Shown here one piece after another: positions 1,539 through 21,387 of a stretch of 64,000 nt of DNA. This DNA comes from an uncultured Clostridia bacterium (lineage in GTDB: Bacteria > Bacillota > Clostridia > TANB77 > CAG-508). Within the stretch, counting starts at the first letter, position 1. Every line of letters begins with the position of its first letter. The stretch covers positions 905 through 64,904 of the forward strand of contig CALXHG010000002.1 in NCBI GenBank assembly GCA_944388045.1. Direction: 5' to 3'. The notes beneath the pieces were generated by a model. That model was not told where the DNA came from, searched no databases, and worked only from the letters and a program-made list of their open reading frames with translations. A program made the position numbers and the translations under genes.

Positions 1539-1644
1539 AAATTTTGATATATTAATAATAAATAACTTTTTAATATGATTGGAGGAAATTCTTATATTTC
1601 CGTATTGAGTTGAAAATTTATGCAACTATTAATATATCAAATTT
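1539..1644 (-). repeat. Long-hairpin repeat family A, apex-less copy (a0), inverted relative to copy a3
   Basis: 1539-1590 matches the reverse complement of the a3 right arm (19927-19985). 1585-1644 matches the reverse complement of the a3 left arm (19786-19846). The ~90-bp G+C-rich apex is absent. Confidence 0.7.
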
Positions 1645-1863
1645 TTATAAAAACAGAAATGTAATAAATTTTATAAAATTACTTGAAATTTTAGCTAATT
1701 TATAGGATAATATATATGTAGGCTTATAAATAATTGAATTATATATTAAACTTAATTATTTTGAAATATCAAAATTTAATAACAAAATATAATATTTTAT
1801 ATAATAAAATGTATGAATATTAACAAAAAGAAAATAAATAATAAAAAATGAAAGGGAAAAATA

Positions 1864-4206
1864 ATGAAATTATTTGATAAATTTTTAAAAAAATTAAATG
1901 CAAGTAGAAATACATTTGCAACATATATATTAACATTAATTTCATTTTATTTAGCAATAGATAGAATTGTTGAAATGCTAATAATGATATTCACAGGGGT
2001 ATCTGTATCATATTGGGGACCATTTATGTATACATTTGCATTAGCATGTCCTGTGTTTGCATATTTGTTTTCTGGAGCATCAGAATTTGCTTCATCTAAA
2101 AATACAAAAGTAACTTTATTTTATGTATATGTTGTTGGACTTTATATAATTGCAATTTCGATGGTAACACAATGGGTAAATCAAGGCTCATGGCTGCTTT
2201 TAATCTCATTGCCTGGATATACTGAACTTGTATCAGATTTTTCAGAATTAATTAGACCAGCATTAACATCACTTGCAATATATTTTCCATTAGTTACATT
2301 TTATAGTGTAATAAAATTTATCCGTCTTGGTGTTGGTGACAGTAAAGACTGGACTAGATCACTTTGGGATTATAAAGGAATTAATTTATCAGATACAAAA
2401 CAAGGACATGGACCATTTACATGTGATATTACAATTTGTAATGATGCAGAAACTGGTAAAAAAGTTGTATTTGGTGAACAAAAAAGATTTCAATCATTAC
2501 TTGTTTGTGGAGGTTCAGGAACAGGTAAAACATCATTAATAATAGAACCATTTGTTGCAAAAGATATTGAGAAAAAAGCTTTTTATTGGGCAAATGCAAA
2601 AGAAATGGGATATACAGCATTAAAAACAGGAATAGCAGTATTAAATAGACCTTATGGAAATGAATATCTAAATGAAAATTTTTCATTAGATATGTTAACA
2701 CCAGCTCAAGGAAAAGAAGCAATTTATAAATCATATATGAATAAAATGATATTAGACTCAAATGGAGAAAATTATTCTTATAAAAATTTGGGAATTACAG
2801 CCATTTCACCAGATTATGAATCAACTTCAAAAATGATGAATATTTGTAGCAATTTCCATATAAAATACAACATAATAGATCCTTCAAATAGAGATTCTAT
2901 AGGTTTAAATCCATTTATATATGATGATGCTAATAAAATTGCTATAACAATTTCATCAGCATTAAAAGCAATGTATGTAAATTCACATCCAGAAATTGAT
3001 GATGTATATAGAGAAGAATTTATAATTCAAGCAATTGAAAATTTAGCAATTATGTTAAAAGAAATGTATCCACGTTTAAATAGTGGTAATTTACCAAATT
3101 TAGATGATATGTTAAAAATGTTAACAAATTATAGTTTGGTACAAAAAATGTGTGAGATTATGTGCCAAGACCAAGAACTTGCAGAAAAATATGAAAGTCA
3201 AATTACATATTTTAAAAGAAATTTCTATTCAAATGGTGTTGGAAGAGCGTTAACAGAACAATATTTATATTTGGCAGTATCTCAATTAGATAATTTGTTA
3301 AGATTACCAGGTGTAAAATCAATATTATGCAATAGACATTATAATATAGACTTTGATAAAGCATTAGCAAATGGAGAAGTTACATTTGTATGTACACGTA
3401 GAGGGGATTTAGGAAGAACAAGTCATAAAGCTTTTGGATTGTTTTTTATTTTAGCAATGCAAAATGCAGTATTAAGAAGACCTGGAAATGAAAAGAGTAG
3501 AATTCCTCATTTCTTTTATATAGATGAATTTCCAGACTTTATATGTAAAGATACAGAAGCAATATTTACATTATATAGAAAATATAAGGTAGCAACTACA
3601 ATAACAGCACAAAACTTATCACAATTAGAGGGAAATGCACCAGATATGAAATATAGAGAAACTATCATTTCAAACTGTGCAAACAAGATTTTCTTAGGAA
3701 ATGCAGATAATACAGAACTAGAATGGTGGCGTAAAGAAATGTATCAAAGAAGAACTTGGAAATGGAAAAATAGTATGGACATGAGTAAACTAGAATATGA
3801 CTCTAAATGGGGTGATGTAAGCTATACTTATGAAGACTATTGGGCTGCAAACAAATTGGGAACAATGCCATTTAAGAGTGCTGCAATAAAACTAAAAGGT
3901 GATAATGGAGCATACCAAATTAATGAAGGAAAATTAGATTTTGTTGGTGCTAAATATAAAGAAGTTCAACCAATAAAAGTATATAATTTTGAAAAATTCA
4001 CTTCTGGATTAATAAATGAAGAAGATAAAGAAAGTAGAAGACAAAAATTTGATCCAAAACATATTAATTTTGTTGATGACAGAAATGAAATTGACCCAAT
4101 TCAAACAGATACAACAGATTCAGGTTTTATATTTGATAATGAAGATGCAGTTGTAGTTAAATTTAAAAAGAGTAAAAAAAATAATGGAAATAGTGAAAAT
4201 AATTAA
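1864..4206 (+). CDS. Membrane-anchored TraD/TraG/VirD4-like (type IV coupling protein-like) P-loop ATPase, orphan
   Basis: About 5 N-terminal TM helices. Then Walker A LLVCGGSGTGKTS, IGLNPF, TRRGDLG, Walker B FFYIDEFPDF and TAQNLSQL, in the motif order of T4CP/FtsK-like ATPases. Good RBS. No other transfer genes nearby. Confidence 0.6.
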   Translation: MKLFDKFLKKLNASRNTFATYILTLISFYLAIDRIVEMLIMIFTGVSVSYWGPFMYTFALACPVFAYLFSGASEFASSKNTKVTLFYVYVVGLYIIAISMVTQWVNQGSWLLLISLPGYTELVSDFSELIRPALTSLAIYFPLVTFYSVIKFIRLGVGDSKDWTRSLWDYKGINLSDTKQGHGPFTCDITICNDAETGKKVVFGEQKRFQSLLVCGGSGTGKTSLIIEPFVAKDIEKKAFYWANAKEMGYTALKTGIAVLNRPYGNEYLNENFSLDMLTPAQGKEAIYKSYMNKMILDSNGENYSYKNLGITAISPDYESTSKMMNICSNFHIKYNIIDPSNRDSIGLNPFIYDDANKIAITISSALKAMYVNSHPEIDDVYREEFIIQAIENLAIMLKEMYPRLNSGNLPNLDDMLKMLTNYSLVQKMCEIMCQDQELAEKYESQITYFKRNFYSNGVGRALTEQYLYLAVSQLDNLLRLPGVKSILCNRHYNIDFDKALANGEVTFVCTRRGDLGRTSHKAFGLFFILAMQNAVLRRPGNEKSRIPHFFYIDEFPDFICKDTEAIFTLYRKYKVATTITAQNLSQLEGNAPDMKYRETIISNCANKIFLGNADNTELEWWRKEMYQRRTWKWKNSMDMSKLEYDSKWGDVSYTYEDYWAANKLGTMPFKSAAIKLKGDNGAYQINEGKLDFVGAKYKEVQPIKVYNFEKFTSGLINEEDKESRRQKFDPKHINFVDDRNEIDPIQTDTTDSGFIFDNEDAVVVKFKKSKKNNGNSENN

Positions 4207-4235
4207 GCAGTGCAAATTAATTTGCACTGCATTTT
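4207..4235 (+). terminator. Rho-independent terminator after the T4CP-like gene
   Basis: Perfect palindrome GCAGTGCAAATT/AATTTGCACTGC followed by ATTTT, immediately after the stop at 4206. Confidence 0.7.
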
Positions 4236-4264
4236 AAAAATAAGTAATATATATTTTATAATTT

Positions 4265-4471
4265 TATAGAAATTTATATATTTTATTTTTTTATTATTCC
4301 TACTCACTTCATTCAAAAAGAATTCATAAGGCTTTCTCATGAGCCTCTTTCACTCCGACCCTCTCGTAAACTCGAGTACCGTGAACATCCCTCATTCGAA
4401 TGCCTAATGAATTCTAATTTTCATTTCGTTCGAACGTCATAATTTAAAAATAAAATATATAAATTTCTGTA
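4265..4471 (+). repeat. Long-hairpin repeat family A, copy a1
   Basis: Outer arms TATAGAAATTTATATATTTTATTTTT (4265-4291) and AAAAATAAAATATATAAATTTCTGTA (4446-4471) are complementary. Inner arms are AAGAATTCATAAGG.. / ..CCTAATGAATTCTAA. Conserved apex lies at 4341-4394. Confidence 0.8.
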
Positions 4472-4504
4472 AGAGATATAAAAAAATAATATTATAAAAA
4501 AATA

Positions 4505-4533
4505 TTGAAAAAATATTGAAAAAATAGTAAAAT
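4505..4533 (+). promoter_or_regulatory. Sigma-A-type promoter candidate for queA
   Basis: TTGAAA-N17-TAAAAT about 25 nt upstream of the queA start. Confidence 0.4.
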
Positions 4534-4555
4534 AAAAAGGAAAGAGGAGAAAAAA

Positions 4556-5581
4556 TTGAAATTAACAGACTTTAATTATGAATTACCAGAAAAATTAATA
4601 GCACAAGTACCAATAAAAAATAGAGATGAATCCAGATTAATGGTTTTAAATAGAAAAAAACAAACAATAGAACATAAAATTTTCAAAGATATAATAGATT
4701 ATTTAGAACCAGGAGATTGTCTTGTAAGAAACAATACAAAGGTTTTACCAGCAAGACTTTATGGAAAAAAAGAAACAGGAGCAAATGTTGAATTTTTATT
4801 ATTAAATAGAATAGAAGAAGACATTTGGGAATGTATAGTAAGACCAGGTAATAAGTTACATGTTGGAACAAAAGTGATATTTGGAGATGGAGAACTTAAT
4901 GCAGATATTTTAGAAGTAATGCCAGGTGGAACTAGAAAAGTTAAATTCTTTTATAAAGGAATTTTTAATGAAATTTTAGATAGAATTGGTTTAATGCCAC
5001 TTCCACCATATATACATGAAGATTTAAAACAAAATGATAGATATCAAACAGTTTATGCAAAATATGAAGGTTCTGCAGCAGCACCAACAGCAGGATTACA
5101 TTTTACAGAAGAGTTATTAAAACAACTTGAAGAAAAAGGTGTAGTTATAGCAAATGTAACATTACATGTAGGAATTGGAACATTTAGACCAGTTAAAGTT
5201 GAAAATATAGAAGAACATGAAATGCATTCAGAACATTTTTATATAAAACAAGAAGATGTAGAAAAAATTAATAATGCAAAAAAGAATGGCAAAAGAGTAA
5301 TTTCTGTTGGAACAACATCTTGTAGAGTTTTAGAAACTATAAGCTCACCAGAAAATGGATTAGTAAAAGTTGCAGAAGGAGATACAAGTATATTTATTTA
5401 TCCGGGATATAAATTTAAATGTATAGATGGATTAATAACCAATTTTCATTTACCAGAATCAACATTATTAATGTTGGTTTCAGCATTAGCAGGGAGAGAA
5501 TATATTATGAAAGCATATCATGAAGCAGTAGAAAAAGAATATAGATTTTTTAGCTTTGGAGATGCTATGTTTATCTATTAA
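4556..5581 (+). CDS. queA: S-adenosylmethionine:tRNA ribosyltransferase-isomerase
   Basis: TTG start after GAGGAG. Full-length QueA-like sequence ([49 protein letters not shown]). Confidence 0.95.
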
Positions 5582-5595
5582 TTGGAGGAATACTT

Positions 5596-8576
<2,981 letters not shown>

Positions 8577-8595
8577 AGAAAATAGGAGGAAAAGT

Positions 8596-9918
8596 ATGGA
8601 ATTATATTATGAGGAATCAAATGAAAGTAAAAAGAAATCTAAAAGCCCAATTATTATAGGAATAATAATAATTTTATTAGTTATTTTAACAATTCTTGTT
8701 ATATGGACTATTTCATATTTACAAAATTCATTATTTAAAGTCAAAATAAATGGTGAATCGAATACTAATTTTAGAGACTTAATTCAAATGGAGCAAACTG
8801 CTGATGGAATAAAAATGTATTTTCCTATAAAAAGTGTTGCGAGTTTTTTAGGTTACACTGGATATACAGGTGATTTCAAAAGCAAATCAGAAGATAGTAG
8901 TAAATGTTATATAGATAATGGTGAAGAAATGGCAATGTTTACTGCTAATTCAGATTCTTTGATTATTTCTACAGATGGAACAACATATGAAGAATATACT
9001 CTGGATGAAAATGTTGTTGAAAGAAATGGGCAATTATATACAACATCTGATGGACTTATAAAGGCATTTCATGTATCATATAACTATAATTCAGGAACAA
9101 ATTCATTAGATATATATACAACAGATTATTTAACAAGTACATATGCTCAAAATTTAAAAATAGATCCAATACCAAAATTATTTAGAGATCGACAAGCAAT
9201 TTTAGAAGGGCTAATAATTGTTGAAACAGGTTCTCAAAAGAAATATGGTGTTTTAAATGTTTCTACACAAAAGTATGTTTTAGAAACAAAATATGATTCA
9301 ATTTCTTATATACCATATTCAACTGATTTTCTAGTTCAAAGTAATGGAAAATATGGAATAATGACAAAAGAAGGAAGAACAAAGATTAGTATTGCATATG
9401 ACGAAATAACACTTATGGATAATAAAAATGGATTATATCTTGTTAAAGAAGATGACTTATTTGGTGTAATAAATAATGAAGGTAAAAATATATTAAGTCC
9501 AAGTTATGAACAAATTGGAGTTGATGGTGAAACATTTGCACAAAATGCTTTAGACAATCAATATATTTTAATCGATACACTTATCCCAGTAAAATATAAT
9601 GGATATTGGGGATTTTTCAATACAGAGGGTGTACAAATAACAGATTTTGAATATACAAATGTTGGCTGTACAACATCTAATCTTGCTAACACTTATCCTG
9701 TTGTTGAAATTCCAAGTATTAAGTTGGTTGTTGTAGAAAAAGATAAGATGTATAATTTAATGGATGCAAATGGAACACTTAGAATAAATGGATTTGTACT
9801 AAATTCTGTTTATTTAACATATGATGCTACATCAGGAAAAAATTCTTATTTTATGACATATGGTGGCAATACAAACAATATTGAAGAAAGATTTAGAACA
9901 TCTTTAAGTAATTCATAA
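8596..9918 (+). CDS. Membrane-anchored WG-repeat (KWG-like) protein
   Basis: Start moved to the ATG after AGGAGG. One N-terminal TM helix. Four or more repeats of the YG(V/I)xNxxGKxxIxxxYDxI type (..KYGVLNV.., KYGIMTKEG.., LFGVINNEG.., YWGFFNTEG..). Confidence 0.6.
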   Translation: MELYYEESNESKKKSKSPIIIGIIIILLVILTILVIWTISYLQNSLFKVKINGESNTNFRDLIQMEQTADGIKMYFPIKSVASFLGYTGYTGDFKSKSEDSSKCYIDNGEEMAMFTANSDSLIISTDGTTYEEYTLDENVVERNGQLYTTSDGLIKAFHVSYNYNSGTNSLDIYTTDYLTSTYAQNLKIDPIPKLFRDRQAILEGLIIVETGSQKKYGVLNVSTQKYVLETKYDSISYIPYSTDFLVQSNGKYGIMTKEGRTKISIAYDEITLMDNKNGLYLVKEDDLFGVINNEGKNILSPSYEQIGVDGETFAQNALDNQYILIDTLIPVKYNGYWGFFNTEGVQITDFEYTNVGCTTSNLANTYPVVEIPSIKLVVVEKDKMYNLMDANGTLRINGFVLNSVYLTYDATSGKNSYFMTYGGNTNNIEERFRTSLSNS

Positions 9919-10073
9919 ATGTAAATAATAAAAACAAATGAAATAATAAAAACAAATGAAATATTATAAAAAATTTAAAAATTTAACAAAAAAGAAATAA
10001 TAGCAATATAATAAATAAAAAAACTAAAGAAAGGAGAATATACTATATTAATATAGTATAAAAGAATAAGAAA

Positions 10074-10331
10074 ATGGCAGTAAAAAGTAGAAACACATGG
10101 TTTTTAATTGTATTAGTTTGTGCAGGACTAGTTATAGGAGGATTAATTGGACAATTAGCATCTCAAATAGATTGGCTAAGTTGGTTATCATATGGTCAAG
10201 AATTTGGACTAGCAGAACCATTAACATTAGATTTAAGTGTTATAAAAATTACATTTGGATTTGTTATAAATATAAATATGGCTAGTATAATTGGAATTGC
10301 AATAGCATTAGTAATATATAGATGGTTATAA
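10074..10331 (+). CDS. DUF4321-like small membrane protein
   Basis: 85 aa with two TM segments and a pattern remembered from clostridial DUF4321 proteins (..GGLIGQL..L.YG..FGL..P..LDL.VI..TFGF...IN.ASIIG..IAL.IYR.L). Confidence 0.55.
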   Translation: MAVKSRNTWFLIVLVCAGLVIGGLIGQLASQIDWLSWLSYGQEFGLAEPLTLDLSVIKITFGFVININMASIIGIAIALVIYRWL

Positions 10332-10467
10332 AATATATATCATAATAAAGAAGAAAATAAAGAGATGGTAAATAAAAAATGATATATAAAAAGTTAATAT
10401 GTAATATGTTTATAAAATTCAATATTAAATAAAAATTATAAACATATTATAAGAGGGGATGTAATAT

Positions 10468-11523
10468 ATGAAGGGTAAAGATATTTTAAAAAATGGTAAA
10501 CATAGTTCAAAAATTTTTATGATTATGTATTTTATTTGTATAGTAACAGTAGTTTTAACTTTTTTATATGGAGCGTATAAAATAGATAAAGAAACAAATG
10601 AAGCAGTAGATTTTACAGAAAATGGTGCAATTGATTTAGAAGTAGGAAAATATGTATATATGAGAGTTGATGGACTAAGTGACTTAATTGCAACATATGG
10701 AACTAGTGATAGTGAATATTCTGATGAAAATGATAAATATTATATTGCAATAAAAGATGGATATTGGTATATTGTAAATTTAGATAATACTACATTAAAT
10801 GAACTTAAAGATATACAAGCTTATACATTAGGTCAAACAGAAACTCCACCAGAATCAGTTACAATATATGGTACAACAGAAGATGTACCACAAGAATTAA
10901 GACAAATTGCAGTTGATATATATAATGAAGGTCTTACAGAAGAGGAAAAAGTTAGTATTGATGAATTTGAACAATGTTATGGTAGTGTTTTATTAAATGC
11001 AAGAAAAACACCAGGAGATTTAACTATTGAAACAATGATAATATTTATTGCATTTATACTTTTTATAGCATTTGTAATTGCACATATTTGTGATAAAATA
11101 ACCAGAAATAAAATATACAAATATTTAAAGAAAAACGAATATGAAGAAGATTTAATACAACAATTAGATGATAATGTAGAAGAAAACTTTTTTGGTGATA
11201 AAGTGATATTTACAAAAGACTTCTTCGTAGATACATATAAATCTGGATTTTGTGCAGTAAAATATTCAGATATAAAGTGGATACATCCTCATACTATAAA
11301 ATATAATGGTATTATAGTATCAAATTGCATTACCTTACATTTAAAAGATGGAAAAACAAATATTCAATGTTTAAATGTTAGAGGCAAAATTAAACCAGAA
11401 TTTGAAAAAGTTTTTGCAAAAATTTGTGATAAAATTCCTCAAGATTCTTTAAAAGGATACACAAAAGAGAATATAAAAGAATTTAAAAATTATAAAAGAG
11501 ATTTACAAAATAAAGTAATATAA
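10468..11523 (+). CDS. Hypothetical membrane protein (two TM segments, cytoplasmic PH-like tail?)
   Basis: Long ORF with RBS GAGGGG and typical codon usage. No family recognised with confidence. Confidence 0.5.
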   Translation: MKGKDILKNGKHSSKIFMIMYFICIVTVVLTFLYGAYKIDKETNEAVDFTENGAIDLEVGKYVYMRVDGLSDLIATYGTSDSEYSDENDKYYIAIKDGYWYIVNLDNTTLNELKDIQAYTLGQTETPPESVTIYGTTEDVPQELRQIAVDIYNEGLTEEEKVSIDEFEQCYGSVLLNARKTPGDLTIETMIIFIAFILFIAFVIAHICDKITRNKIYKYLKKNEYEEDLIQQLDDNVEENFFGDKVIFTKDFFVDTYKSGFCAVKYSDIKWIHPHTIKYNGIIVSNCITLHLKDGKTNIQCLNVRGKIKPEFEKVFAKICDKIPQDSLKGYTKENIKEFKNYKRDLQNKVI

Positions 11524-11613
11524 TTAAAATGTCTAAATTTATTATTGACAAATATTTACGATTTTGATATTATTCAATAGTAATAGGAAAATATCTGATA
11601 GGAGGAAATACAA

Positions 11614-12066: not shown

Positions 12067-12074
12067 AAAAAATA

Positions 12075-12106
12075 AACCGGTAATTTTGTACCGGTTCTCT
12101 TTTTTT
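12075..12106 (+). terminator. Rho-independent terminator built from two inverted ACCGGT repeat units
   Basis: AACCGGTA-ATTTTG-TACCGGTT hairpin followed by CTCTTTTTTT, 9 nt after the stop codon. Confidence 0.65.
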
Positions 12107-12215
12107 CTAATACCGGTTCTATTTTTTTGATAATTTGGTGCCAATTCTGGATAATTGGGTGCCGGTTCTAAAATTTGCCGATTCTGGATAATTGGGTGCC
12201 GATTCTAAATTTTTT
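12075..12215. repeat. Array of (T/G)(A/G)CCGGTTCT(C)TTTTT-type repeat units (6-7 units, some degenerate: GCCAATTCT, GCCGATTCT)
   Basis: Direct reading of TACCGGTTCTCTTTTTTT, TACCGGTTCTATTTTTTT, GGTGCCAATTCTGG, GGTGCCGGTTCTAAAA, TTGCCGATTCTGG and GGTGCCGATTCTAAATTTTTT. Related units occur at 28824-28850, 37027-37096 and 60324-60340. Confidence 0.75.
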
Positions 12216-12366
12216 ATTTACAATATAAAATTTTTTCATAATGGTTATATACAAAACTTTTGAATTATGATAAAATTATTTCATCTAAAACAAAAAGCAA
12301 GATAGTAGTTAAAAAAATATTATTAATTACTAATTATGCTAAAAAAAGAAAGGAAAGAATCTTATT

Positions 12367-13053
12367 ATGAAAAAAATTGGAAATATATTATGGGGAATAG
12401 TATTCATAATTATAGGAGTAATAATAGGGCTAAATGCTTTAGATATTACACATATTAACATATTTTTTAGTGGATGGTGGACATTATTTATTATAATTCC
12501 ATGTTTTATAGATTTATTTAATGACAAAGATAAAACAGGAGATATTATAGGAATAATTGTTGGAATAATTCTATTATTATGTGCACAGAACATATTAAGT
12601 TTTGCCATAGTTTGGAAATTAGCAATACCTACAATACTTATAGTTTTAGGAATTTCAATTATTTTTAAATCTAGTATAAATAGTAAATTAAATAAGGAAA
12701 TAGATAAATTAAAACAAAAATCTAATGTAGAAAATGAATATTGTTCAACATTTTCAAGTCAAGACATAAAGTTTGAGAACCAAGAATTCCAAGGGGCTAA
12801 TTTAACAGCTGTATTTGGAGGAGTAAGAGCAGATTTAAGAAATGCAGTAATTAATGAAGAACAAGTTATTAATTGCTCAGCTATTTTTGGAAGTATAGAA
12901 ATAATTCCATCAGATGAAATTAATATTAAAGTTAAATCTACATCAATTTTTGGAGGAGTATCTAATAGTAGAAAAAACAAAGAAATTAATAATGAATTAA
13001 AAACAGTATATATAAATGCAATGTGTTTATTTGGAGGTGTTAGTATAAAATGA
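12367..13053 (+). CDS. LiaF-like (DUF2154) cell-envelope stress-associated membrane protein
   Basis: N-terminal 4-TM region (GIVFIIIGVIIGLNAL..GWWTLFIIIPC..). C-terminal repeated FGG(V/S) beta-strand motifs (VFGGVRADLRNA, IFGSIEII, IFGGVSN, LFGGVSI). Confidence 0.65.
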   Translation: MKKIGNILWGIVFIIIGVIIGLNALDITHINIFFSGWWTLFIIIPCFIDLFNDKDKTGDIIGIIVGIILLLCAQNILSFAIVWKLAIPTILIVLGISIIFKSSINSKLNKEIDKLKQKSNVENEYCSTFSSQDIKFENQEFQGANLTAVFGGVRADLRNAVINEEQVINCSAIFGSIEIIPSDEINIKVKSTSIFGGVSNSRKNKEINNELKTVYINAMCLFGGVSIK

Positions 13054-13940
13054 CATTTTGGCAAAAAATAATAAAATATTTAGCAATTGCTTTAGCAATA
13101 TTTTTAATAATAAATATAATTGGAGCAATTTTATCTATAATAGGAGTTATAGGAGGAGTTGCATTTATAACAGATACAATAAAAACTGAAATAATGCAAG
13201 AAAATGATGGACTTTTACAAGATGAGCAAAACTATTCTAAAACACCTCAAGTTATAACAGAAAATATTCAAATAGATAATATTGCAAAACTTGAAATAGA
13301 TGTAAAATATTCAAATCTAGAAATAAAAAATGGAGATACATTTAAAGTAGAAAGCAATGACACTAATGTTAAATGCACACAAAAAGGAAATGAATTAACA
13401 GTTAAAGAAACAGGAAATAACTGGCTTAGAAATAAAGAAGGAAATGAAGTTATAATATATATTCCAGAAAATAAAGAGTTTAACGAAATAGAAATAGATA
13501 CTGGAGCAGGAAATATTCAAATACAAAGTTTAAATGCGAGAGATTTATCATTTAGTATTGGAGCAGGAAAAGTTCAAATTGATAAATTAACAGTTTCTAA
13601 TGAAGCAGAAATAGATGGAGGAGCAGGAAAAGTAGACATTTTATCAGGGCAAATAAGTAATTTAGATTTAGACATGGGAGTTGGCGAATTTAATATATGT
13701 ACAAAATTATTAGGAAATAATAATATTGAACAAGGAATGGGGAAATTAACTATTAAATTAACAGATTCTCAAGAAAATTACACAATAAGAACAAGAAAAG
13801 GAATGGGAACAATTACAATTGATGGCAAAGAAGCACAAAACAATTCAATAAATGGAAATGGACAAAATATATTAAATATAGAAGGTGGAATGGGAGCAAT
13901 AGAAATTACTACAAATAATGAATTAAATCAATATATTTAA
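13050..13940 (+). CDS. DUF4097-like beta-strand-repeat protein (LiaG-like putative adhesin), translationally coupled to the LiaF-like gene
   Basis: ATGA overlap with the upstream gene. One TM helix. Repeated GAGN/GAGK..I motifs (DTGAGNIQIQ, IGAGKVQID, GGAGKVDIL, MGVGEFNI, GMGKLTI, GMGAIEI). Confidence 0.65.
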   Translation: MTFWQKIIKYLAIALAIFLIINIIGAILSIIGVIGGVAFITDTIKTEIMQENDGLLQDEQNYSKTPQVITENIQIDNIAKLEIDVKYSNLEIKNGDTFKVESNDTNVKCTQKGNELTVKETGNNWLRNKEGNEVIIYIPENKEFNEIEIDTGAGNIQIQSLNARDLSFSIGAGKVQIDKLTVSNEAEIDGGAGKVDILSGQISNLDLDMGVGEFNICTKLLGNNNIEQGMGKLTIKLTDSQENYTIRTRKGMGTITIDGKEAQNNSINGNGQNILNIEGGMGAIEITTNNELNQYI

Positions 13941-14036
13941 AATATTTATTATTAGGGGCGGTCTCTATTTAACCTAGGATTATTTAGAGATTGTCTCTTT
14001 TTTACATATAAAATTGAAAGGAGAAACAGAAAATTA

Positions 14037-15188
14037 ATGAGAATTTTACATTTAGCAGATTTACATTTAGGTAAAATATTACAAGAACAACCTTTAATAG
14101 AAGACCAAAAATATATGTTAGAAGAAATAATAAAAAAAGTTCAAGAAGAAAATATAGAAATAATCTTAATTTCTGGAGATATATATGATAGAAGTATACC
14201 GCAAACAGATGCTGTAGATATGTTAGACTATTTTTTAAATAAATTAATAAAAGATTTAAAAAAACAAGTATTTATTATATCAGGAAATCATGATTCTAAA
14301 GAAAGACTTGGATTTGGAAATAAAATTTTTGAAAATGATGGATTATATATTTCTAGTAAATATGAGGGACAAATAAAAAAGGTAGAACTACAAGATGAAT
14401 ATGGAAAATTAAATATTTATTTATTACCATTTATTAAACCAGTTGAAGTAAAAAAATATTTTGAAGATGAAATATTAAGTTATGATGAAACAATAAAAAA
14501 AATAATAGAAAAAGAAAATATTGATGAAACACAAAGAAATATAATATTAACACATCAATTTGTAACATGTATTGGAGAAGAAGTAGAAAGAACAGATTCT
14601 GAAACCATATCTTTAGGTGGAATAGATAATGTAGACATCTCTAATTATGATAAATTTGATTATGTGGCAATAGGACATGTACATAGACCTCAAAGAATCG
14701 GTAGAGATACAGCAAGATATGCAGGAACAATGTTAAAATACTCTTTTTCAGAAGTAAATCATAAAAAAACAATACCTATTATTGATTTTAAAGAAAAGGG
14801 AAATATTAATATAAAATTAGTTGAATTAATACCTTTAAGAGATATGAGAGAAATAAAAGGTCCAATTGAAGAACTAATCAAAAAAGAAAATTATAAAAAT
14901 ACTAATACAGAAGATTATATAAAAGCAATTATTACAAATGAAGAACCTGTTTATGATGCAATTGGACAAATAAGAAAAATATATCCAAATGTATTAAAAC
15001 TAGAAATTCAAAATTCAAAAAGTTCTGTTAGCCCAAATGATGAAAAGGAAAAAGAGTTGCAAAATATAAAAAATAAAAGTGAAGTAGAATTATTTAATGA
15101 ATTTTATAAATTCCAAAATTATACTAAACTTAATGATGAACAGACTCAAGTAATTGAGAATATAGTTAAAGAAATAAAAGGGTATTAA
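14037..15188 (+). CDS. sbcD: Exonuclease SbcCD, nuclease subunit D (Mre11 family)
   Basis: Calcineurin-like phosphoesterase motifs ILHLADLHLG, SGDIYD, GNHDS and GHVH. Adjacent to sbcC. Confidence 0.9.
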   Translation: MRILHLADLHLGKILQEQPLIEDQKYMLEEIIKKVQEENIEIILISGDIYDRSIPQTDAVDMLDYFLNKLIKDLKKQVFIISGNHDSKERLGFGNKIFENDGLYISSKYEGQIKKVELQDEYGKLNIYLLPFIKPVEVKKYFEDEILSYDETIKKIIEKENIDETQRNIILTHQFVTCIGEEVERTDSETISLGGIDNVDISNYDKFDYVAIGHVHRPQRIGRDTARYAGTMLKYSFSEVNHKKTIPIIDFKEKGNINIKLVELIPLRDMREIKGPIEELIKKENYKNTNTEDYIKAIITNEEPVYDAIGQIRKIYPNVLKLEIQNSKSSVSPNDEKEKELQNIKNKSEVELFNEFYKFQNYTKLNDEQTQVIENIVKEIKGY

Positions 15189-15217
15189 TTGTTATAATTT
15201 ACAGTTAAAAATATAAA

Positions 15218-15417
15218 GAATGTTAATATATTAATATTTCATAAATTTTTCAGGTTCAATACGATATTTAAGAATTTGTAATATGATTTATTGAGCCTCT
15301 TTCACTCAGACCCTCACTTCGTGAGTACCGTGAACATCCCTCAATAAATCATAAAACAAATTCTAAAATATCTCCTATCACATTCAAAATTTATTCAATA
15401 TTAATATATTAACATTC
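15218..15417 (+). repeat. Long-hairpin repeat family A, copy a2, in the sbcD-sbcC spacer
   Basis: Outer arms GAATGTTAATATATTAATATT / AATATTAATATATTAACATTC. Inner arms AAGAATTTGTAATATGATTTATTGAG / CTCAATAAATCATAAAACAAATTCTAA. Conserved apex at 15293-15343. Confidence 0.8.
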
Positions 15418-15460
15418 TATACTTAAAATTTAACAATAAATTGTAAAGAAAGGAGTGCTA

Positions 15461-18406
15461 ATGAAACCATTAAATTTAAAATTAAGTGCATTTGGACCAT
15501 ATAAAGATGAAATAAATATAGATTTTAAAAAATTAGGAAATAATGGAATATTTTTAATAACAGGAGATACAGGTGCAGGAAAAACAACTATATTTGATGC
15601 TATTTCTTTTGCTTTATTCGGAGAAGTAAGTGGTTCGAACAGACAAGTTTCTTCTTTAAGAAGTGACTTTGCAAATGATGAAACAGAAACATATGTAGAA
15701 CTTGAATTTTTACATAAAAATAAAAATTATAAAATAAAAAGGACACCAGCATATGAAAGAGCAAAAAAAAGAGGAGAAGGTCTAACCAAAATAAATGCAG
15801 ATTGTTTTTTAGAGTTTGAGAATACAGTTATTTCTGGTACAAAAAATGTAGATTCAAAAATAGAAGAAATATTAGGAATAAATGCGAAACAATTTAAACA
15901 AATAGCAATGCTAGCACAAGGTGAATTTTTAAAAATATTATTTGCAGAAAGTAAAGACAGGACTGAAGTTTTTAGAAGAATTTTTGATACAGATATTTAT
16001 AATCAAATATCTAAAAAATTAATGGATAAAACTAGAGTTGCTAAAGCAGAATTAGAGCAACTAAAAGATTTTTTTGCAATAAATGCATCTAATATAATAT
16101 GGAGTTCAAAAAATTTAGAGAATTTAAATAATAAAGAAATAGATAATAAAGACTTTGAAGACTTGACTAAAAAAGAATTAATAGAAAATAATTTGGAATA
16201 TGAAGAAATAAATAGTGAAAATTCAGAAGAAAAATATGATGATGAAACAAATAAAGAAAATGATAATATACATAAAATCTCTCCAAAAGAAGTAAATGAA
16301 AGTTTAATTGAAGATGTAATAGAAAAATTGCAAAAAGAAATAGAAATTAATAAAACTGAATTCAAAAAATATAATGAAAAAATTAAGATTTTAGAAAAAG
16401 AAATTGAGAGATTAACAGAAGAAATAAGAAAAAAGCAAGAGCAAAATAATCAGATTGATATATATAATAAATTAGAAATTCAAAAAAAGGAATTAGAAGA
16501 AAAAAAAGAAGAAATAAAAGATAAAGAAGAAAAAGTTAAGAAAAATCAAGAAATACTTAGTAAAATTTTACCTATAGAAAAAAGAGTTAAAGAAATAAAT
16601 GCAGAAATAAAAGAAAAGCAGGATTTATTGCAAAGTTTGAAAGAAAAAATTAGTGAAGGAGAAGAAAAAGAGAAAAAATCAAAATCGACAGTAGAATCAA
16701 TTGATAAATTGAGAGTTTTATTGCAAAATTATAATGAATTAATAGAAAAGAAAAATGAATTTGGAATAATAATCAAAAAAATTGATGATATAATTAAAGA
16801 AATTGAAAATGAACATAAAGCTAAAGAAAAATGCCAGAAATTAGAGGTTGATTTAGAAAAGATAACAAGAGAGTTAATAACAAAAGAAATTGAATTTTAT
16901 AGAGAACAAGCCGGAATTTTGGCAGAAAATTTAAAAGAAGATGAACCATGTCCTGTATGTGGAAGCAAAAGTCATCCTTGTTTAGCAAAAAAATCTGAAA
17001 ATGTTTTAACAAAAGAACAATTAGATGATTTGAGAAAAGTTGAAGAAAAAAGTAATAAAGTATTTACAGAAGCGGTAAATAAAGTTACAGAAATAGATGC
17101 TAAAATAGAAACTTTAAAGGTTGGACTAAAATTAGATTTAATAAAATATAAAGAAGATATTAAAAATTTTTCTAAAAGTATAGGACAAAAAGAACATATA
17201 AACAAAAATTTAGATATAAAAAATGGAAATATAGAATTAAAAAATGAAGAAATTAATGATTATAAAAAAATAATAGAAGATAAAATTTCTAAAATAGATG
17301 AAGACATAAATAAAATTTATGAAGATATAAATGAGATTTATAAACAATTTTATAATAAGAAAATTAATATTGTAAAATTTGATTTTGATGTTTTTAAAAA
17401 TGAAATTACAAGCAAAATTCAAAAAGAAAGAGAACAATTATTAAAAGACAAAACACAGTTAGAAGAAAATGAAAAGCAATTTAATTTGTTAGAAAAAAAG
17501 CAGAAACAAGAGCAAAAAGAATATAACAAAGTTTTAAAACAATTAGGTTTTGAAAGTGAAGAAACATATAAAAACCTTGTACTTGACGAAAAACAACTAA
17601 ATAAAATAAAAAAAGAAATTGACCAATATCAAAAAGATTTAACTATTAATAATACAAGAATAGAAGAAATAAAGAAAAAAGTAAAAGATTTTAATAAAAT
17701 AGACTTAACAGAACAAAACAAAGAATTAGCTGAAAAACAAGATATTTTAAAAGATGCAAGAAAAATATTAATGGAACAAAATACAAATTTAAGTAATAAT
17801 GAAAAAATTCTAAAAGATTTAATTAAAAATTCTATAAATTTAAAATCAAAAATAAAAGAATATACTTTATTAGATGATTTATCAAGAACTGCTAATGGAA
17901 CAATTTACGGTAAAAGAAGAATAGAATTTGAACAATTTGTACAAGCTTCATATTTTGAATTAGTAATTTTAGAAGCTAATAAAAGATTAGCAAAAATGAC
18001 TGATAATAGATTTGTTTTAGTAAGAAAAGAAAATTCAGATAAAGTTTATGATAAAATTGGATTAGAATTGGAAGTTATAGATAATTATAGTGGTAAAAAA
18101 AGAGATGTAAAATCTTTATCTGGTGGAGAAGCATTTAAAGCAACACTTTCTCTATCTCTTGGTCTTTCTGATGTAATTCAAAGCTATTCTGGAGGAATTG
18201 TTGTAGATACTATGTTTATTGATGAAGGTTTTGGCTCTTTAGATGATGAATCTAGAGACCAAGCTATTAATACTTTATTACAATTAACAGATACTAATAA
18301 ATTGATTGGAATTATTAGCCATGTTACAGAACTTAAAGAGTGTATTGATAAAAAAATAATTGTTACAAAATCTCAACAAGGAAGTAGTATTAAAGTTGAA
18401 ATTTAA
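15461..18406 (+). CDS. sbcC: Exonuclease SbcCD, ATPase subunit C (Rad50/SMC-like)
   Basis: Start placed at the ATG 6 nt after AGGAG. Walker A GDTGAGKTTIFDAISFALFG, long K/E-rich coiled coil with zinc hook CPVCGS, signature LSGGE, Walker B VDTMFIDEGFGSLD. Confidence 0.9.
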   Translation: MKPLNLKLSAFGPYKDEINIDFKKLGNNGIFLITGDTGAGKTTIFDAISFALFGEVSGSNRQVSSLRSDFANDETETYVELEFLHKNKNYKIKRTPAYERAKKRGEGLTKINADCFLEFENTVISGTKNVDSKIEEILGINAKQFKQIAMLAQGEFLKILFAESKDRTEVFRRIFDTDIYNQISKKLMDKTRVAKAELEQLKDFFAINASNIIWSSKNLENLNNKEIDNKDFEDLTKKELIENNLEYEEINSENSEEKYDDETNKENDNIHKISPKEVNESLIEDVIEKLQKEIEINKTEFKKYNEKIKILEKEIERLTEEIRKKQEQNNQIDIYNKLEIQKKELEEKKEEIKDKEEKVKKNQEILSKILPIEKRVKEINAEIKEKQDLLQSLKEKISEGEEKEKKSKSTVESIDKLRVLLQNYNELIEKKNEFGIIIKKIDDIIKEIENEHKAKEKCQKLEVDLEKITRELITKEIEFYREQAGILAENLKEDEPCPVCGSKSHPCLAKKSENVLTKEQLDDLRKVEEKSNKVFTEAVNKVTEIDAKIETLKVGLKLDLIKYKEDIKNFSKSIGQKEHINKNLDIKNGNIELKNEEINDYKKIIEDKISKIDEDINKIYEDINEIYKQFYNKKINIVKFDFDVFKNEITSKIQKEREQLLKDKTQLEENEKQFNLLEKKQKQEQKEYNKVLKQLGFESEETYKNLVLDEKQLNKIKKEIDQYQKDLTINNTRIEEIKKKVKDFNKIDLTEQNKELAEKQDILKDARKILMEQNTNLSNNEKILKDLIKNSINLKSKIKEYTLLDDLSRTANGTIYGKRRIEFEQFVQASYFELVILEANKRLAKMTDNRFVLVRKENSDKVYDKIGLELEVIDNYSGKKRDVKSLSGGEAFKATLSLSLGLSDVIQSYSGGIVVDTMFIDEGFGSLDDESRDQAINTLLQLTDTNKLIGIISHVTELKECIDKKIIVTKSQQGSSIKVEI

Positions 18407-18435
18407 TTAAAGAAATTTTTGGGTATTGTATAAAA

Positions 18436-18473
18436 CAGAATGAACTTTGGAATACATTCTAAAGTTCATTCTG
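18436..18473. terminator. Hairpin between convergent sbcC and the 108-aa minus-strand gene (bidirectional terminator candidate)
   Basis: 13-bp stem CAGAATGAACTTT / AAAGTTCATTCTG with a 12-nt loop. Confidence 0.55.
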
Positions 18474-18543
18474 CTAGTTATTTTGCAAAAAATTTTGATA
18501 AAACGGATGTAGAATTCTGTAAAATTTAAAGAAACATTGAAGT

Positions 18544-18870
18544 TTAAAAAAGTCTAAGATGTCTAATAAAAGCCAAAGCTTCTTTCCAAAGATTTTCACA
18601 CTCAATATCAGTGTCCCAAGCCTTATAAAACATTTTAATTTTGTCATAAGGTTCAGCTGTCTTAATTTGATAATTTCCATTATTAGCAGGTTTTATAAAA
18701 ATATTGTTTTCATAATCATAATAAAGCCAATTGCCATTTCTAAAAATAACAAAAATTTCATCTTTTTTTTCTACGACAACTTTTGTAATGTGATTATCTT
18801 TTAATGTAATTTCTGTACGTTTTCCATTTCTTAAAATGTCAAAAATCCGTTTTTCTTTAATATTAAGCAT
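18544..18870 (-). CDS. Hypothetical 108-aa protein (one of only two minus-strand genes)
   Basis: ATG preceded by GGAGGT. No family recognised. Contains an in-frame CGG (Arg8, 18847-18849). Confidence 0.5.
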   Translation of the reverse strand: MLNIKEKRIFDILRNGKRTEITLKDNHITKVVVEKKDEIFVIFRNGNWLYYDYENNIFIKPANNGNYQIKTAEPYDKIKMFYKAWDTDIECENLWKEALAFIRHLRLF

Positions 18871-19010
18871 AGAAAATACCTCCTACCAATTGTTAAAAGG
18901 TTGAAAAGAACTAACAATATATTATATTCAAATTTGTACAAGATTATGATAAAAACTTTTAATTTACGGTCAGGCACTTTTATTTTTTTATAACATATAA
19001 TTTTGTATGT

Positions 19011-19036
19011 GAAGAATTATTAGAATTCTTCTTTTG
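19011..19036 (+). promoter_or_regulatory. AT-rich hairpin plus T-run immediately upstream of the sigK RBS
   Basis: GAAGAATT-ATTAG-AATTCTTC followed by TTTTG. The stem carries the AAGAATT/AATTCTT termini motif of repeat family A. Confidence 0.35.
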
Positions 19037-19049
19037 ATTGGAGGTTTTT

Positions 19050-19751
19050 ATGTTTCCCTCACTTTGTTTAAATGGATTTTTTCAATTTTTACAAACAGCA
19101 GTATTTGTTGTTGGTTACATATCTGGAACAAATTTATTCCCAGAACCATTAAGTACAGAAGAAGAAAAATTATATCTTGAAAGATTAAGTACAGGTGATG
19201 AAGAAGCTCGTAATATTTTAATAGAGCATAATTTAAGACTTGTTGCACATGTTTGCAAAAAATATAGTAATTCTAATGTTGACCAAGATGATTTAATATC
19301 AATAGGAACTATTGGGCTAATTAAAGGAATAAATAATTTTAAAACAGAAAAAGGAGCAAGATTATCTACATATGTATCTAGATGTATAGATAATGAAATA
19401 TTAATGTATTTTAGAGCTACAAAAAAACTAAATGCAGAAGTTTTCTTAGATGAACCAATTGGTAAAGACAAAGATGATAATTGCATAACTTTACAAGAAG
19501 TTCTAGAAAATGATGAACGTAGTGTAGAAGATGCTGTAGATTTAAAAATGAAAGTAAAACTTTTATATGAAAAAATGAAATCTATTTTAAAAGATAGAGA
19601 ACGTACTATTATAGAATTAAGATTTGGACTTGATGGGAATAAGCCAAAAACACAAATAGAAATTGCTAAAAAATTAGGAATTTCTCGTTCATATGTATCT
19701 CGAATAGAAACAAAAGCAATTAATAAATTAGCTAAAGAGATTAAACAGTAA
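19050..19751 (+). CDS. sigK: Sporulation sigma factor SigK (pro-sigma-K), uninterrupted
   Basis: Start at the ATG after GGAGG. Pro-sequence, then ..NLFPEPLSTEEEKLYLERL..GDEEARNILIEHNLRLVAHVCKKY..DLISIGTIGLIKGI..CIDNEILMYFRA.. and a region 4 HTH (IAKKLGISRSYVSRIE). FP(E/Q)PLS plus IEHNLRLVAH favours SigK over SigE. Confidence 0.85.
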   Translation: MFPSLCLNGFFQFLQTAVFVVGYISGTNLFPEPLSTEEEKLYLERLSTGDEEARNILIEHNLRLVAHVCKKYSNSNVDQDDLISIGTIGLIKGINNFKTEKGARLSTYVSRCIDNEILMYFRATKKLNAEVFLDEPIGKDKDDNCITLQEVLENDERSVEDAVDLKMKVKLLYEKMKSILKDRERTIIELRFGLDGNKPKTQIEIAKKLGISRSYVSRIETKAINKLAKEIKQ

Positions 19752-19770
19752 TTGTAAAAATGTGATAAAG

Positions 19771-19999
19771 TTCCAGTTCAGTAGGAAATTTTGATATATT
19801 AATAATTGCATAAATTTTTCGACTCAATACGGAAATATAAGAATTTCTAAAATAATTTTATGGCACCCTTTCACTTAGTCCTCGCTACGCTCGACGCGAA
19901 CATTTTCCATAAAATTAATTTAAGAAATTCTAAATTTCCTCCAATCGTATTCAAAATTTACTTATTATTAATATATCAAAATTTCCTACTGAACTGGAA
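19771..19999 (+). mobile_element. Long-hairpin repeat family A, copy a3: MITE-like element with a 9-bp target-site duplication
   Basis: Perfect terminal inverted repeats TTCCAGTTCAGTAGGAAATTTTGATATATTAATAA / TTATTAATATATCAAAATTTCCTACTGAACTGGAA. Flanked by direct TGTGATAAA (19761-19769 and 20000-20008). Divergent apex at 19861-19910. Confidence 0.65.
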
Positions 20000-20149
20000 T
20001 GTGATAAAATTATTTGTTTTAAATTATATAGACAAAATTTAAAGAATATTGTAGAATAGGTTACATAGGAAATTAGAATAAGCAGAAGTGTTTTCTCCGT
20101 TTCCTATGTTTATTATAATGTCAAACAAAAAAGTAATAATAGTTAAGGA

Positions 20150-21043
20150 ATGAGATTAATTATGGAAATACCACAATTTTTAAAGGAAAAAATAGAAAAA
20201 GAATATGGATTAGAAATTTTAAAAAAAATCGAAACAGGATTTATAGAAGAAAAACCAGTTACATTAAGAGTAAATACAATAAAAACAAATGCAGAAAAAG
20301 TAAAAATAGAACTAGAAAAAAATAATATTGAATATGAAATTGTAGAATGGAACGAATCAGCATTTATAATAAAAAATGTAAAAGAGGAAGAAATTAGAAA
20401 ATTAGATATATATAATAATGGAGAAATATATTTACAAAGCTTATCATCTATGATACCAGCAATTATAATAGACCCAAAAGAAAGAGAAAATATATTGGAC
20501 ATGACAGCAGCACCAGGTGGAAAAACAAGCCAAATGGCTGCAATTGCAAATAATAAAGTATTTTTAACTGCATGTGAAAAAAATAAGATAAGATTAGAAA
20601 GATTGCAATATAATATGCAAAAACAAGGGGTTAGAAATATAAATATAATGCAAGAAGATTCTAGAAAATTAAGTAATTATTTTTCTTTTGATAAAATTTT
20701 ACTTGATGCACCTTGTAGTGGAAGTGGAACAGAAAATATTTTTAATTCTAATTTTACAGAAGAACTAATAAAAAGATCTTGTAAAACACAAGAAGAATTA
20801 TTAACAAAAGCATTATCAATATTAAAACATGGTGGAGAAATGGTTTATTCGACATGTTCAATATTAAAAGAAGAAAATGAAGAAATACTAAATAAAGTTC
20901 TAAAAAAGTTTAAAGCACAAATTGTTCCTATTCAAATTCCTAAAGAGATACCAGTTTTGCCAACTTCTATTGATGGAGTTGTAACAATATGTCCAACAAA
21001 ATTATATGAAGGTTTTTTTGTGGCAAAAATTTTACTTGATTAA
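20150..21043 (+). CDS. RsmB/RsmF-family rRNA (cytosine-C5) methyltransferase (NOL1/NOP2/Sun)
   Basis: SAM motif DMTAAPGGKTSQMA and catalytic DAPCSGSGT ... YSTCS. The start could instead be the ATG at 20162. Confidence 0.8.
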   Translation: MRLIMEIPQFLKEKIEKEYGLEILKKIETGFIEEKPVTLRVNTIKTNAEKVKIELEKNNIEYEIVEWNESAFIIKNVKEEEIRKLDIYNNGEIYLQSLSSMIPAIIIDPKERENILDMTAAPGGKTSQMAAIANNKVFLTACEKNKIRLERLQYNMQKQGVRNINIMQEDSRKLSNYFSFDKILLDAPCSGSGTENIFNSNFTEELIKRSCKTQEELLTKALSILKHGGEMVYSTCSILKEENEEILNKVLKKFKAQIVPIQIPKEIPVLPTSIDGVVTICPTKLYEGFFVAKILLD

Positions 21044-21113
21044 AAGTATATCCAATAAATGGTTATATATTAATTAGTTACTAGACAATGGACTTCTTAT
21101 TTTGTTTTGTTAA

Positions 21114-21312
21114 AAAAGTTGATATTATAATATTTAAAGTTCTCCTGTTCATTCCATTCAAAAAGAATTCATAAGGCTTTTTCATGCGCCTCTTTCACTC
21201 CGACCCTCACTTCGTGAGTACCGTGAACATCCCTCATGCAAAAAGCCAAATGAATTCTAATTTTCATTTCAATCAAGCGTCGAAGCTTTAAAATATTATA
21301 ATATCAACTTTT
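21114..21312 (+). repeat. Long-hairpin repeat family A, copy a4
   Basis: Outer arms AAAAGTTGATATTATAATATTTAAAG / CTTTAAAATATTATAATATCAACTTTT. The central ~150 bp is nearly identical to a1. Apex at 21186-21236. Confidence 0.8.
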
Positions 21313-21387
21313 CTTTATTCTATTTTATTTTATTTGAGAACATTACCTCGTAACAATTTAGAAGAAATTAAAAAAATTTAAAAATAT

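Follow-up and report, generated by a model that had tools for sequence, protein, structure and literature searches.

Long palindromic repeats of gut Clostridia are probably non-autonomous transposable elements with IS66-type ends

What are the long hairpin repeats that lie between the housekeeping genes of an uncultured Clostridia bacterium, and how did they come to be there? We examined 64,000 nt of contig CALXHG010000002.1 (positions 905–64,904, forward strand; this whole stretch is hereafter the window), in which a preliminary description had reported five hairpins of about 200 nt with a conserved apex and covarying arms. The repeats belong to one family that has been mobile; they have terminal inverted repeats and a target duplication and are linked to IS66-type elements. 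We consider it likely that they are MITEs (miniature inverted-repeat transposable elements), non-autonomous and moved in trans by a DDE transposase from a subgroup of the IS66 family. This reading leaves three points unexplained: C-rich bubbles at fixed spacing, a 38:7 orientation bias and the missing partner insertion sequence (IS).

All five loci are present where that description had placed them:

c1, 1539–1644, minus strand: apex-less copy, in the opposite orientation to the others.
c2, inverted repeat 4240–4495 with apex at 4341–4394, plus strand: type-B copy, its central stem-loop (P2) being CTCG-TAAACT-CGAG.
c3, 15191–15446 with apex at 15293–15343, plus strand: type-A copy, occupying the entire sbcD–sbcC spacer.
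c4, element 19770–20000 (19762–20008 with its target duplication), plus strand: copy with a divergent apex, GGCACCCTTTCAC..GAACATTTTCC, at 19861–19910.
c5, 21114–21312 with apex at 21186–21236, plus strand: type-B copy.

The reported folding was borne out. Copies c2–c5 each fold as one long single-strand hairpin of −57 to −82 kcal/mol, with z-scores against dinucleotide shuffles of −11.3 (c2), −14.1 (c3), −12.1 (c4) and −9.1 (c5) and none of 200 shuffles equally good; the folding of c1 is weaker (z = −4.5). In the window the apex 20-mer was counted three times where 0.01 would be expected, and neither it nor the arms recurs in the remaining 43 kb (22–64 kb). That all copies lie downstream of plus-strand genes, as had also been pointed out, is true and tells little, since every gene of this region (window G+C ~25%) is on the plus strand.

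To place these copies in a family, we scanned one genome per species for an exact match to 18 nt of the apex, which returned at least 113 loci (loci outside the window carry L numbers below). Among the matches listed, about 100 are true copies in which the 5′ apex half is also present. The repeat family with its conserved apex is genuine. In the same set, the copies occupy 81 independent intergenic sites after orthologous positions are merged, and the hosts are ~35 metagenome-assembled genomes (MAGs) labelled uncultured Clostridia, Clostridium or Eubacteriales. These MAGs come from chicken, sheep, cattle and other animal guts; a few matches in Acidobacteriota and similar taxa were dismissed as chance. 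The window is syntenic with one BRZ_ER__bin71 contig at 93–98% identity, and orthologs of c1 and of c2 (94% identity) were found in L069. In metagenomes holding the window organism, the k-mer depth of the c4-type element is 30–100 times that of its flanks, which corresponds to tens to ~100 copies per genome equivalent.

Evidence for mobility comes from the ends of the element and from the sites that it occupies. Intact ends read GTTACAGTTCAG...CTGAACTGTAAC, and alignment of full-length copies places the terminal inverted repeats, GTTACAGTTCA(GACC)...TGAACTGTAAC, on both sides of the apex at a distance of about 100 nt. In c4 the 16-nt repeats GTTCCAGTTCAGTAGG (19770–19785) and CCTACTGAACTGGAAT (19985–20000) are enclosed by a perfect 8-bp target duplication, GTGATAAA, at 19762–19769 and 20001–20008. 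The terminal repeats of c3 are degenerate (GTTATAATTTACAG at 15191–15204, ACAATAAATTGTAA at 15433–15446), and c3 aligns end to end with copies bearing GTTACAGTTCA terminal repeats. Copy c5 would reach over 21077–21353 if GTTACTAG...CTCGTAAC is, as is possible, its decayed outer shell. Duplications also flank copies elsewhere:

L082 copy, 5148–5379: near-identical to c4, with perfect terminal repeats and an 8/8 duplication, TATAATAT.
L039 copy: 8/8 duplication, TATAAAAA.
L027, two copies: a 7/8 duplication each.
L021 mini-element, 76 bp: terminal repeats only, with a 7/8 duplication.

Where the ends of a copy are exact (GTTAC...GTAAC), the 8-mers on its two flanks agree at a mean of 4.9 of 8 positions, and an offset control gives 2.5 of 8. 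Filled and empty states of the same orthologous intergenic site were seen in different MAGs at fabH–fabD (L020 versus L052), at accB–fabZ (L052 versus L060) and in L068 versus L109; the empty sites are those seen in L052, L060 and L109, and some sites hold a different hairpin element. Small, non-coding and multi-copy with presence and absence among genomes, the repeats thus combine terminal inverted repeats, a fixed 8-bp duplication and ends shared with an IS, which are the marks of a MITE. The same ends were also seen in a 48-bp version in L228 and in MITEs of ~150 bp in GC-rich DNA (L165 and L220). At L192 (~6933) and L209 (~4000, minus strand) the terminal repeats abut directly (GTTACAGTTCAGACCTGAACTGTAAC), possibly as a 26-bp "empty" element or a joined-ends product.

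To identify elements sharing these ends, metagenomes were scanned with the 16-nt terminal repeat. Most hits were single chance matches, and three elements, of 2063, 2397 and 2571 bp, were bounded by the 16-mer and its inverted copy, two of the three with perfect 8-bp duplications (AAATTTAT and CGGAAATC). These three come from L135, L178 and L227. Their open reading frames (ORFs; 543–667 aa) match Pfam DDE_Tnp_IS66 (E = 1e-18 to 1e-20) and NCBIfam transpos_IS66 (E = 1e-46 to 1e-51), the latter with scores of 158–176, just below the curated cut-off of 180. Homologues retrieved by protein similarity alone (47–48% identity; L235–L238) were in all four cases bounded by exactly GTTACAGTTCAGACC...GGTCTGAACTGTAAC, ~2.25 kb apart, and elements of this type also contain a divergent XRE-type helix-turn-helix (HTH) gene. 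Two of three further homologues carry the variant end GGTCTGAATAGTAAC, which is also found in MITE subfamilies such as those of L039 and L070, and the third ends in CTCTGAACTGTAAC. Direct repeats of 8 bp are characteristic of IS66, whose canonical terminus is GTAAGCG (PMC11946415). The terminus here is GTTACAG and differs from the canonical one; we therefore place these elements in a distinct IS66 subgroup. The apex matches nothing. Of the possibility raised earlier that it might match an IS end, what stands is that the outer ends, which had then gone unseen, match an IS family. The interior of the MITE was compared with that of the IS and with the XRE operator, and no similarity was found. 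In the IS66-type elements at L235 1–2284, L236 1–2251 and L238 178–2428, the XRE-family gene (111–113 aa) is divergently transcribed, which is uncommon for IS66, and an operator-like palindrome, ATGTACATATATGTACAT, lies between it and the transposase gene.

On these grounds, the transposase would recognise the terminal inverted repeats GTTACAGTTCAG(ACC), and a staggered cut would leave the 8-bp target duplication in AT-rich intergenic DNA. Copies that came to lie within operons (sbcD–sbcC, fabH–fabD, accB–fabZ) would be co-transcribed as RNA hairpins of ~100 bp, and post-insertion selection on the co-transcribed hairpin could produce the orientation bias. Copy c1 and the mini-elements would be central-deletion derivatives.

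Transposition would explain how such an element spreads; can it also explain how the element is built? All copies follow a common plan. From the centre outwards it comprises P2, the apex, a stem P1, the AAGAA/TTCTAA motif, bubble B, the outer arms and, in intact copies, the terminal repeats:

P2: variable stem-loop, usually 11–20 nt, occasionally 61–178 nt.
Apex, 5′ side: GAGCC-TCTT-TCAC-TCAGACC (GAGCC-TCTTTCAC-TCAGACC).
Apex, 3′ side: TACC-GTGAA-CATCC-CTCA.
P1: ~20 bp, wholly different in sequence between subfamilies and constant in length.
AAGAA/TTCTAA: invariant motif containing an A-A mismatch.
Bubble B: a further asymmetric bubble, in which TCGGCTCAATAC faces CTCCAATCACATTCG.

Intact copies measure ~230–260 bp and almost the whole element is palindromic, with complementary arms whose length per side ranges between 23 and more than 200 nt. 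The motif AAGAATT...AATTCTAA, taken for the termini in the preliminary description, turned out to be a conserved internal motif ~21 bp below the apex. Within the apex, pairing is possible only at TTCAC/GTGAA and GAG/CTC, and the first pairs of P2 covary (CTC/GAG, CTT/AAG, CAAAAGC/GCTTTTG). Three conserved non-complementary bubbles (the apex, the AAGAA/TTCTAA motif and bubble B) are kept at fixed spacing, with unpaired segments that are all C-rich and G-poor on the plus strand. Bubble B is the most universally conserved part, and at least five apex types, that of c4 included, occur on the one scaffold among bystander copies that were not selected through the apex.

Several readings of the apex were set aside. 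Its TCAGACC is shared with a terminal repeat in one subfamily only, and apex type is independent of terminal-repeat type, so that the likeness was taken for coincidence and not for an internal copy of the terminal repeat; attC, CIRCE, LexA-box, k-turn and hammerhead-like structures were compared by eye and none fits. Some copies contain an in-frame SLFHSDP...STVNIP, and as a peptide-coding frame it is broken by the variation in P2 length (11–20 nt, not multiples of 3).

Related MAGs hold other hairpins on the same scaffold, with bubble B kept (L028 3211–3364; L104 ~2400–2590; L055 3735–3963; L046 2875–3079). Their apices differ, for example GGCACCTCTCAAAGCGAGATTTGAGATTCTCC, GAGCCTCTCGC..GCGCTTCCTCA and CACCCTTCCAAAC..GTTTGAAC, and some of them occupy an orthologous site that holds a canonical copy elsewhere. 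Palindromes longer than 400 bp were seen in CAZBMU01 (L005, L033, L035, L058, L077) and CALXJV01 (L004, L012, L055). Their outer arms are near-identical within a copy and different between copies, and contain G+C-rich hairpins with T-runs behind them, which look like terminators on both strands; a second apex-like pair in opposite orientation is also present.

The stems change in sequence and remain complementary. We examined 31 pairs in 41 non-redundant inner hairpins from ~35 genomes. Standard pairs fill 94.9% of cells, against 76.7% when shuffled and 35–50% when the partner column is slid; both sides have changed at 19 of the 31 pairs, and the covariation score was reached by 0 of 500 shuffles. 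The compensatory changes first noticed in the window are therefore real, far more extensive than had been seen there, and present in copies from other genomes. The preliminary description went further and proposed that covariation implies selection on a folded RNA or a single-stranded DNA form; that it does so by itself for a folded RNA is not supported. Among 1263 cells, double changes number 211 and one-sided G-U cells three, and mismatches over the whole arms are strand-symmetric (G:T 242, A:C 251). Selection for an RNA helix on the usually transcribed strand would not leave its changes distributed in this way. There is no support for an origin of the covariation at the RNA level, and a DNA-level cause fits at least as well.

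Imperfect palindromes are corrected by template switching during replication (quasi-palindrome mutagenesis). The stems would then be complementary mainly for DNA-level reasons: copies would inherit a palindromic master, and template switching would correct quasi-palindromes, giving double changes with neither G-U intermediates nor strand bias. We favour this origin because G-U intermediates are rare, mismatches are symmetric, the arms are long and RNA depth tracks DNA depth. For the last point, the element-to-flank depth ratio (30–100×) is equal in chicken-gut metatranscriptome contigs, which are unstranded, and in DNA-like runs of the same community; accumulation of the RNA, looked for as enrichment over DNA copy number in these unstranded contigs, was not found.

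The bubbles would escape such homogenisation. Their sequence and spacing are kept across subfamilies with unrelated stems, which indicates that selection acts on their unpaired nucleotides, in a folded strand or a cruciform, where a protein would in the simplest case make contact. Likewise, P2 can be 11 or 178 nt long without disturbing the conserved halves that flank it, so the folded form appears to be the relevant one and not the linear duplex.

A different explanation starts from the same data and takes the inner hairpin (P1, apex and P2) to be a functional structured RNA cargo, acting in cis in mRNAs (on their processing, stability or translation) or as a minus-strand small RNA, with the covariation as RNA-level selection. 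Stems that vary freely while unpaired nucleotides and helix lengths are conserved would suit it, as would the tolerance of any P2 of 11–178 nt provided that it pairs, which makes sense only for a folded strand. In the inner hairpin, A:C mismatches of the plus strand (equivalent to minus-strand G-U) are commoner than G:T, at 20:5 for the 41 sequences and 47:6 when every copy is counted; a few recurrent positions dominate these counts. The minus-strand bubbles are purine-rich with GGA motifs (AGGGAUGU, UUGGAG), c3 and c4 contain a minus-strand promoter-like site (TTGAAT-16-TAGAAT), and copies are biased in orientation relative to transcription (38:7). Against this stand the near absence of G-U intermediates (3 of 1263 cells), the equal RNA and DNA depths, the lack of an Rfam match even with lax filters and the variety of apex types, at least five, that share one scaffold. 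Moreover, the strand suggested by the wobble pairs (minus) is opposite to the one usually co-transcribed (plus), and we rejected the promoter as such, since only ~20 of 99 copies have the site and its score does not exceed that of the mirror position. We regard an RNA cargo as unlikely.

The orientation bias itself was determined among the matches listed. Where a copy lies between tandem genes, the apex plus strand is the coding strand at 38 sites and the opposite strand at 7 (84%; p = 3e-6); a further 15 sites lie between convergent genes and 13 between divergent genes. Because the element is nearly palindromic, the bias must act through its asymmetric bubbles. Its source is possibly post-insertion selection on the co-transcribed RNA or a replication-strand effect, two causes that are inseparable within 8-kb loci. 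The minus-strand version would place Shine–Dalgarno-like GGAG/GGAGG and GAGGGAUG motifs in mRNAs. Copies are located inside operons, and no intrinsic terminator (a GC-rich stem with a U-tract) is present in c3 or c4, which fits the elements being tolerated there.

A hairpin with conserved unpaired bases and variable stems, together with an orientation bias that correlates with gene direction and hence probably with replication direction, is also what might be expected if the repeats moved as single-stranded DNA hairpins through an HUH/Y1 transposase, in the manner of IS200/IS605 palindrome-associated transposable elements (PATEs) or of REPIN/RAYT systems, the bubbles being recognition features. 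To our knowledge, IS200/IS605 elements and REPINs have neither target duplications nor terminal inverted repeats. The consistent 8-bp duplications, terminal inverted repeats identical to those of DDE (IS66) elements and the absence of an adjacent Y1 gene make this mode of movement very improbable.

Several observations weigh against movement by an IS66-type transposase as well. Recognisable terminal repeats are found in only 10 of 101 apex-bearing copies when exact ends are required and in ~22 of 101 when relaxed; in c2, c5 and many others the outer arms are idiosyncratic or decayed and no target duplication can be seen, so part of the family may have spread another way or may be old. The MITE and the IS share only 15–17 nt of terminal repeat. 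No autonomous partner was found in 114 genome loci of 8 kb (900 kb), and the fetched loci contain neither a pair of terminal repeats more than 700 bp apart nor a multi-copy ORF; the IS of L178, the only one tested, is missing from four metagenomes in which the window organism is present. A 38:7 bias is unusual for neutral DDE insertion. A DDE transposase needs no 100-bp palindrome, and transposition explains neither the palindromy nor the conserved bubbles, for which a function is purely inferred. Most copies may be old and immobile, or the core may have a history partly independent of the IS66-type outer part.

The second of these possibilities can be taken further, with the repeats as concentric composites made by nested insertions: an IS66-type shell (S1) around a middle layer with bubble B (S2) around an inner layer with the apex hairpin (S3), the core being S2+S3 and the shell alone being an IS66-type MITE. 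All combinations of layers do occur: S1 alone (the 76-bp L021 element with its 7/8 duplication and the 48-bp L228 version), S2 alone (c1), S2+S3 (c2, c5 and type C) and S1+S2+S3 (c3 and c4). Apex types are exchangeable on the same S2, in some MAGs a whole element lies reversed where an outer pair resembling the apex would have its P2 (L005, L033, L058), and some copies sit mid-way in other inverted repeats (L022, L113). However, S3 was not seen apart from S2, S2 by itself is rare (one site) and no target duplication or end is definable for S2 or S3. Central deletions are also the expected decay route of long palindromes. Copy c1 retains only the middle layer (TTGATATATTAATA arms and bubble B), the inner hairpin with the apex and the outer terminal repeats being gone. 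When aligned with c4, its junction ATATAAG-AATTTC-CTCC corresponds to the two AATTTC direct repeats around the c4 inner hairpin. Copy c1 thus appears to be an internal deletion of a c4-type copy between these repeats, which is simpler than nesting, and we consider composites a doubtful account of the family.

The IS66-type MITE remains our preferred reading. On top of it, the bubbles and the orientation bias might be signs of a folded module with a function, an RNA or single-stranded DNA hairpin to which a protein binds, that spreads on the MITE; we put this forward tentatively and do not expect it to be the case. Such a module could regulate or titrate an RNA-binding protein, or could be an RNase III or other mRNA-processing signal in reduced Clostridia genomes. 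If so, the family would be a mobile, modular RNA element acting in cis or in trans and not a purely selfish repeat.

Database searches agreed with the preliminary description that the element is unrecognised and its sequence unrelated to known ones. Rfam, searched with 22.5 kb and with one element alone, gave no match at the gathering score or at lax E-values, for the apex or otherwise; sub-threshold hits to known RNA families were only chance hairpins (mir-753, 39 bits against a cut-off of 62). A plasmid or phage origin was rejected, as blastn found no match in PLSDB plasmids or GenBank phages, and one viral-contig match, in a coding region, is chance. A literature search by sequence strings returned unrelated primers only. 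The family is previously undescribed.

The genes around the copies of the window are ordinary housekeeping ones: queA, tgt, sbcD, sbcC, a sigma factor gene, an RsmB/F-like methyltransferase gene and hrcA. SbcD and SbcC (14037–18406) form a nuclease that cleaves DNA hairpins, and their genes are here separated by the ~250-bp near-perfect palindrome c3, an arrangement also found in the closest relative (L014). Between c1 and c2 lies a gene for a 780-aa TraG/VirD4-like coupling-protein homologue (1864–4236), followed, immediately before c2, by a terminator-like hairpin, GCAGTGCAAATTAATTTGCACTGC, with a T-run. Between queA and tgt, a 613-aa ORF (5596–7437, plus strand) with a weak match to Ppx/GppA domain III is missing from the 94%-identical BRZ_ER__bin71 contig, which has 137 nt instead (L069 6480–6617), an indel between close relatives. 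Downstream of sbcC, 518 nt (18407–18925) cannot be aligned with the 841 nt at L079 1750–2591, the flanks being 95–98% identical. The 6S/SsrS RNA gene was found at 59759–59968 on the plus strand (Rfam RF00013, 82 bits, full-length model).

These results bear on several questions. A high-copy family shapes the intergenic regions of widespread uncultured low-GC Clostridia from chicken, ruminant and other guts, even within sbcDC and the fab cluster. Its tie to a poorly characterised IS66 subgroup offers a tractable transposase with a minimal substrate, the ends being found down to mini-elements of 26–76 bp. For comparative RNA discovery the family is a caution, as palindromic mobile DNA can acquire abundant "compensatory" changes with no selection at the RNA level. 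The repeats break metagenome assemblies and are usable as lineage markers, and the conserved bubbles and the orientation bias provide concrete, testable leads.

How do these elements compare with known systems? The IS66 subgroup described here, with a single transposase and a divergent XRE-type HTH gene (L178, L227, L135, L235–L238), has the same ends of 15–17 nt (GTTACAGTTCAGACC), the same 8-bp target duplication and the same AT-rich insertion sites. The window elements lack the transposase and HTH genes, are ten times shorter and have an unrelated interior that is a near-perfect palindrome. Integron attC sites resemble them in keeping structure while stems vary, in conserved unpaired bases, in a centre of variable length and in a single orientation downstream of genes. 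Unlike attC sites, the window elements have syntenic housekeeping genes as neighbours and not cassettes, with no integrase; their unpaired parts are conserved as sequence, and they have terminal repeats and target duplications. REPIN/RAYT systems and IS200/IS605 PATEs share hairpins, compensatory change and high abundance, yet depend on a Y1 HUH transposase and lack terminal repeats and duplications, whereas both are found in the window elements, which match a DDE family. ERIC/IRU, Correia (NEMIS) and RUP elements are short, non-coding, multi-copy and intergenic, form a single long hairpin, are often co-transcribed and exist as insertion and internal-deletion variants. The window elements are like them in these traits, and the likeness in kind that the preliminary description had seen is strengthened by the terminal inverted repeats, the 8-bp duplications and the filled and empty orthologous sites. 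The sequences are unrelated, those of the window being without a database match. Correia and RUP elements have TA targets and belong with other IS families, whereas the window elements have 8-bp duplications and IS66-type ends. They differ from all three groups in their arms of 100 to more than 200 nt and in central asymmetric bubbles that are better conserved than the termini.

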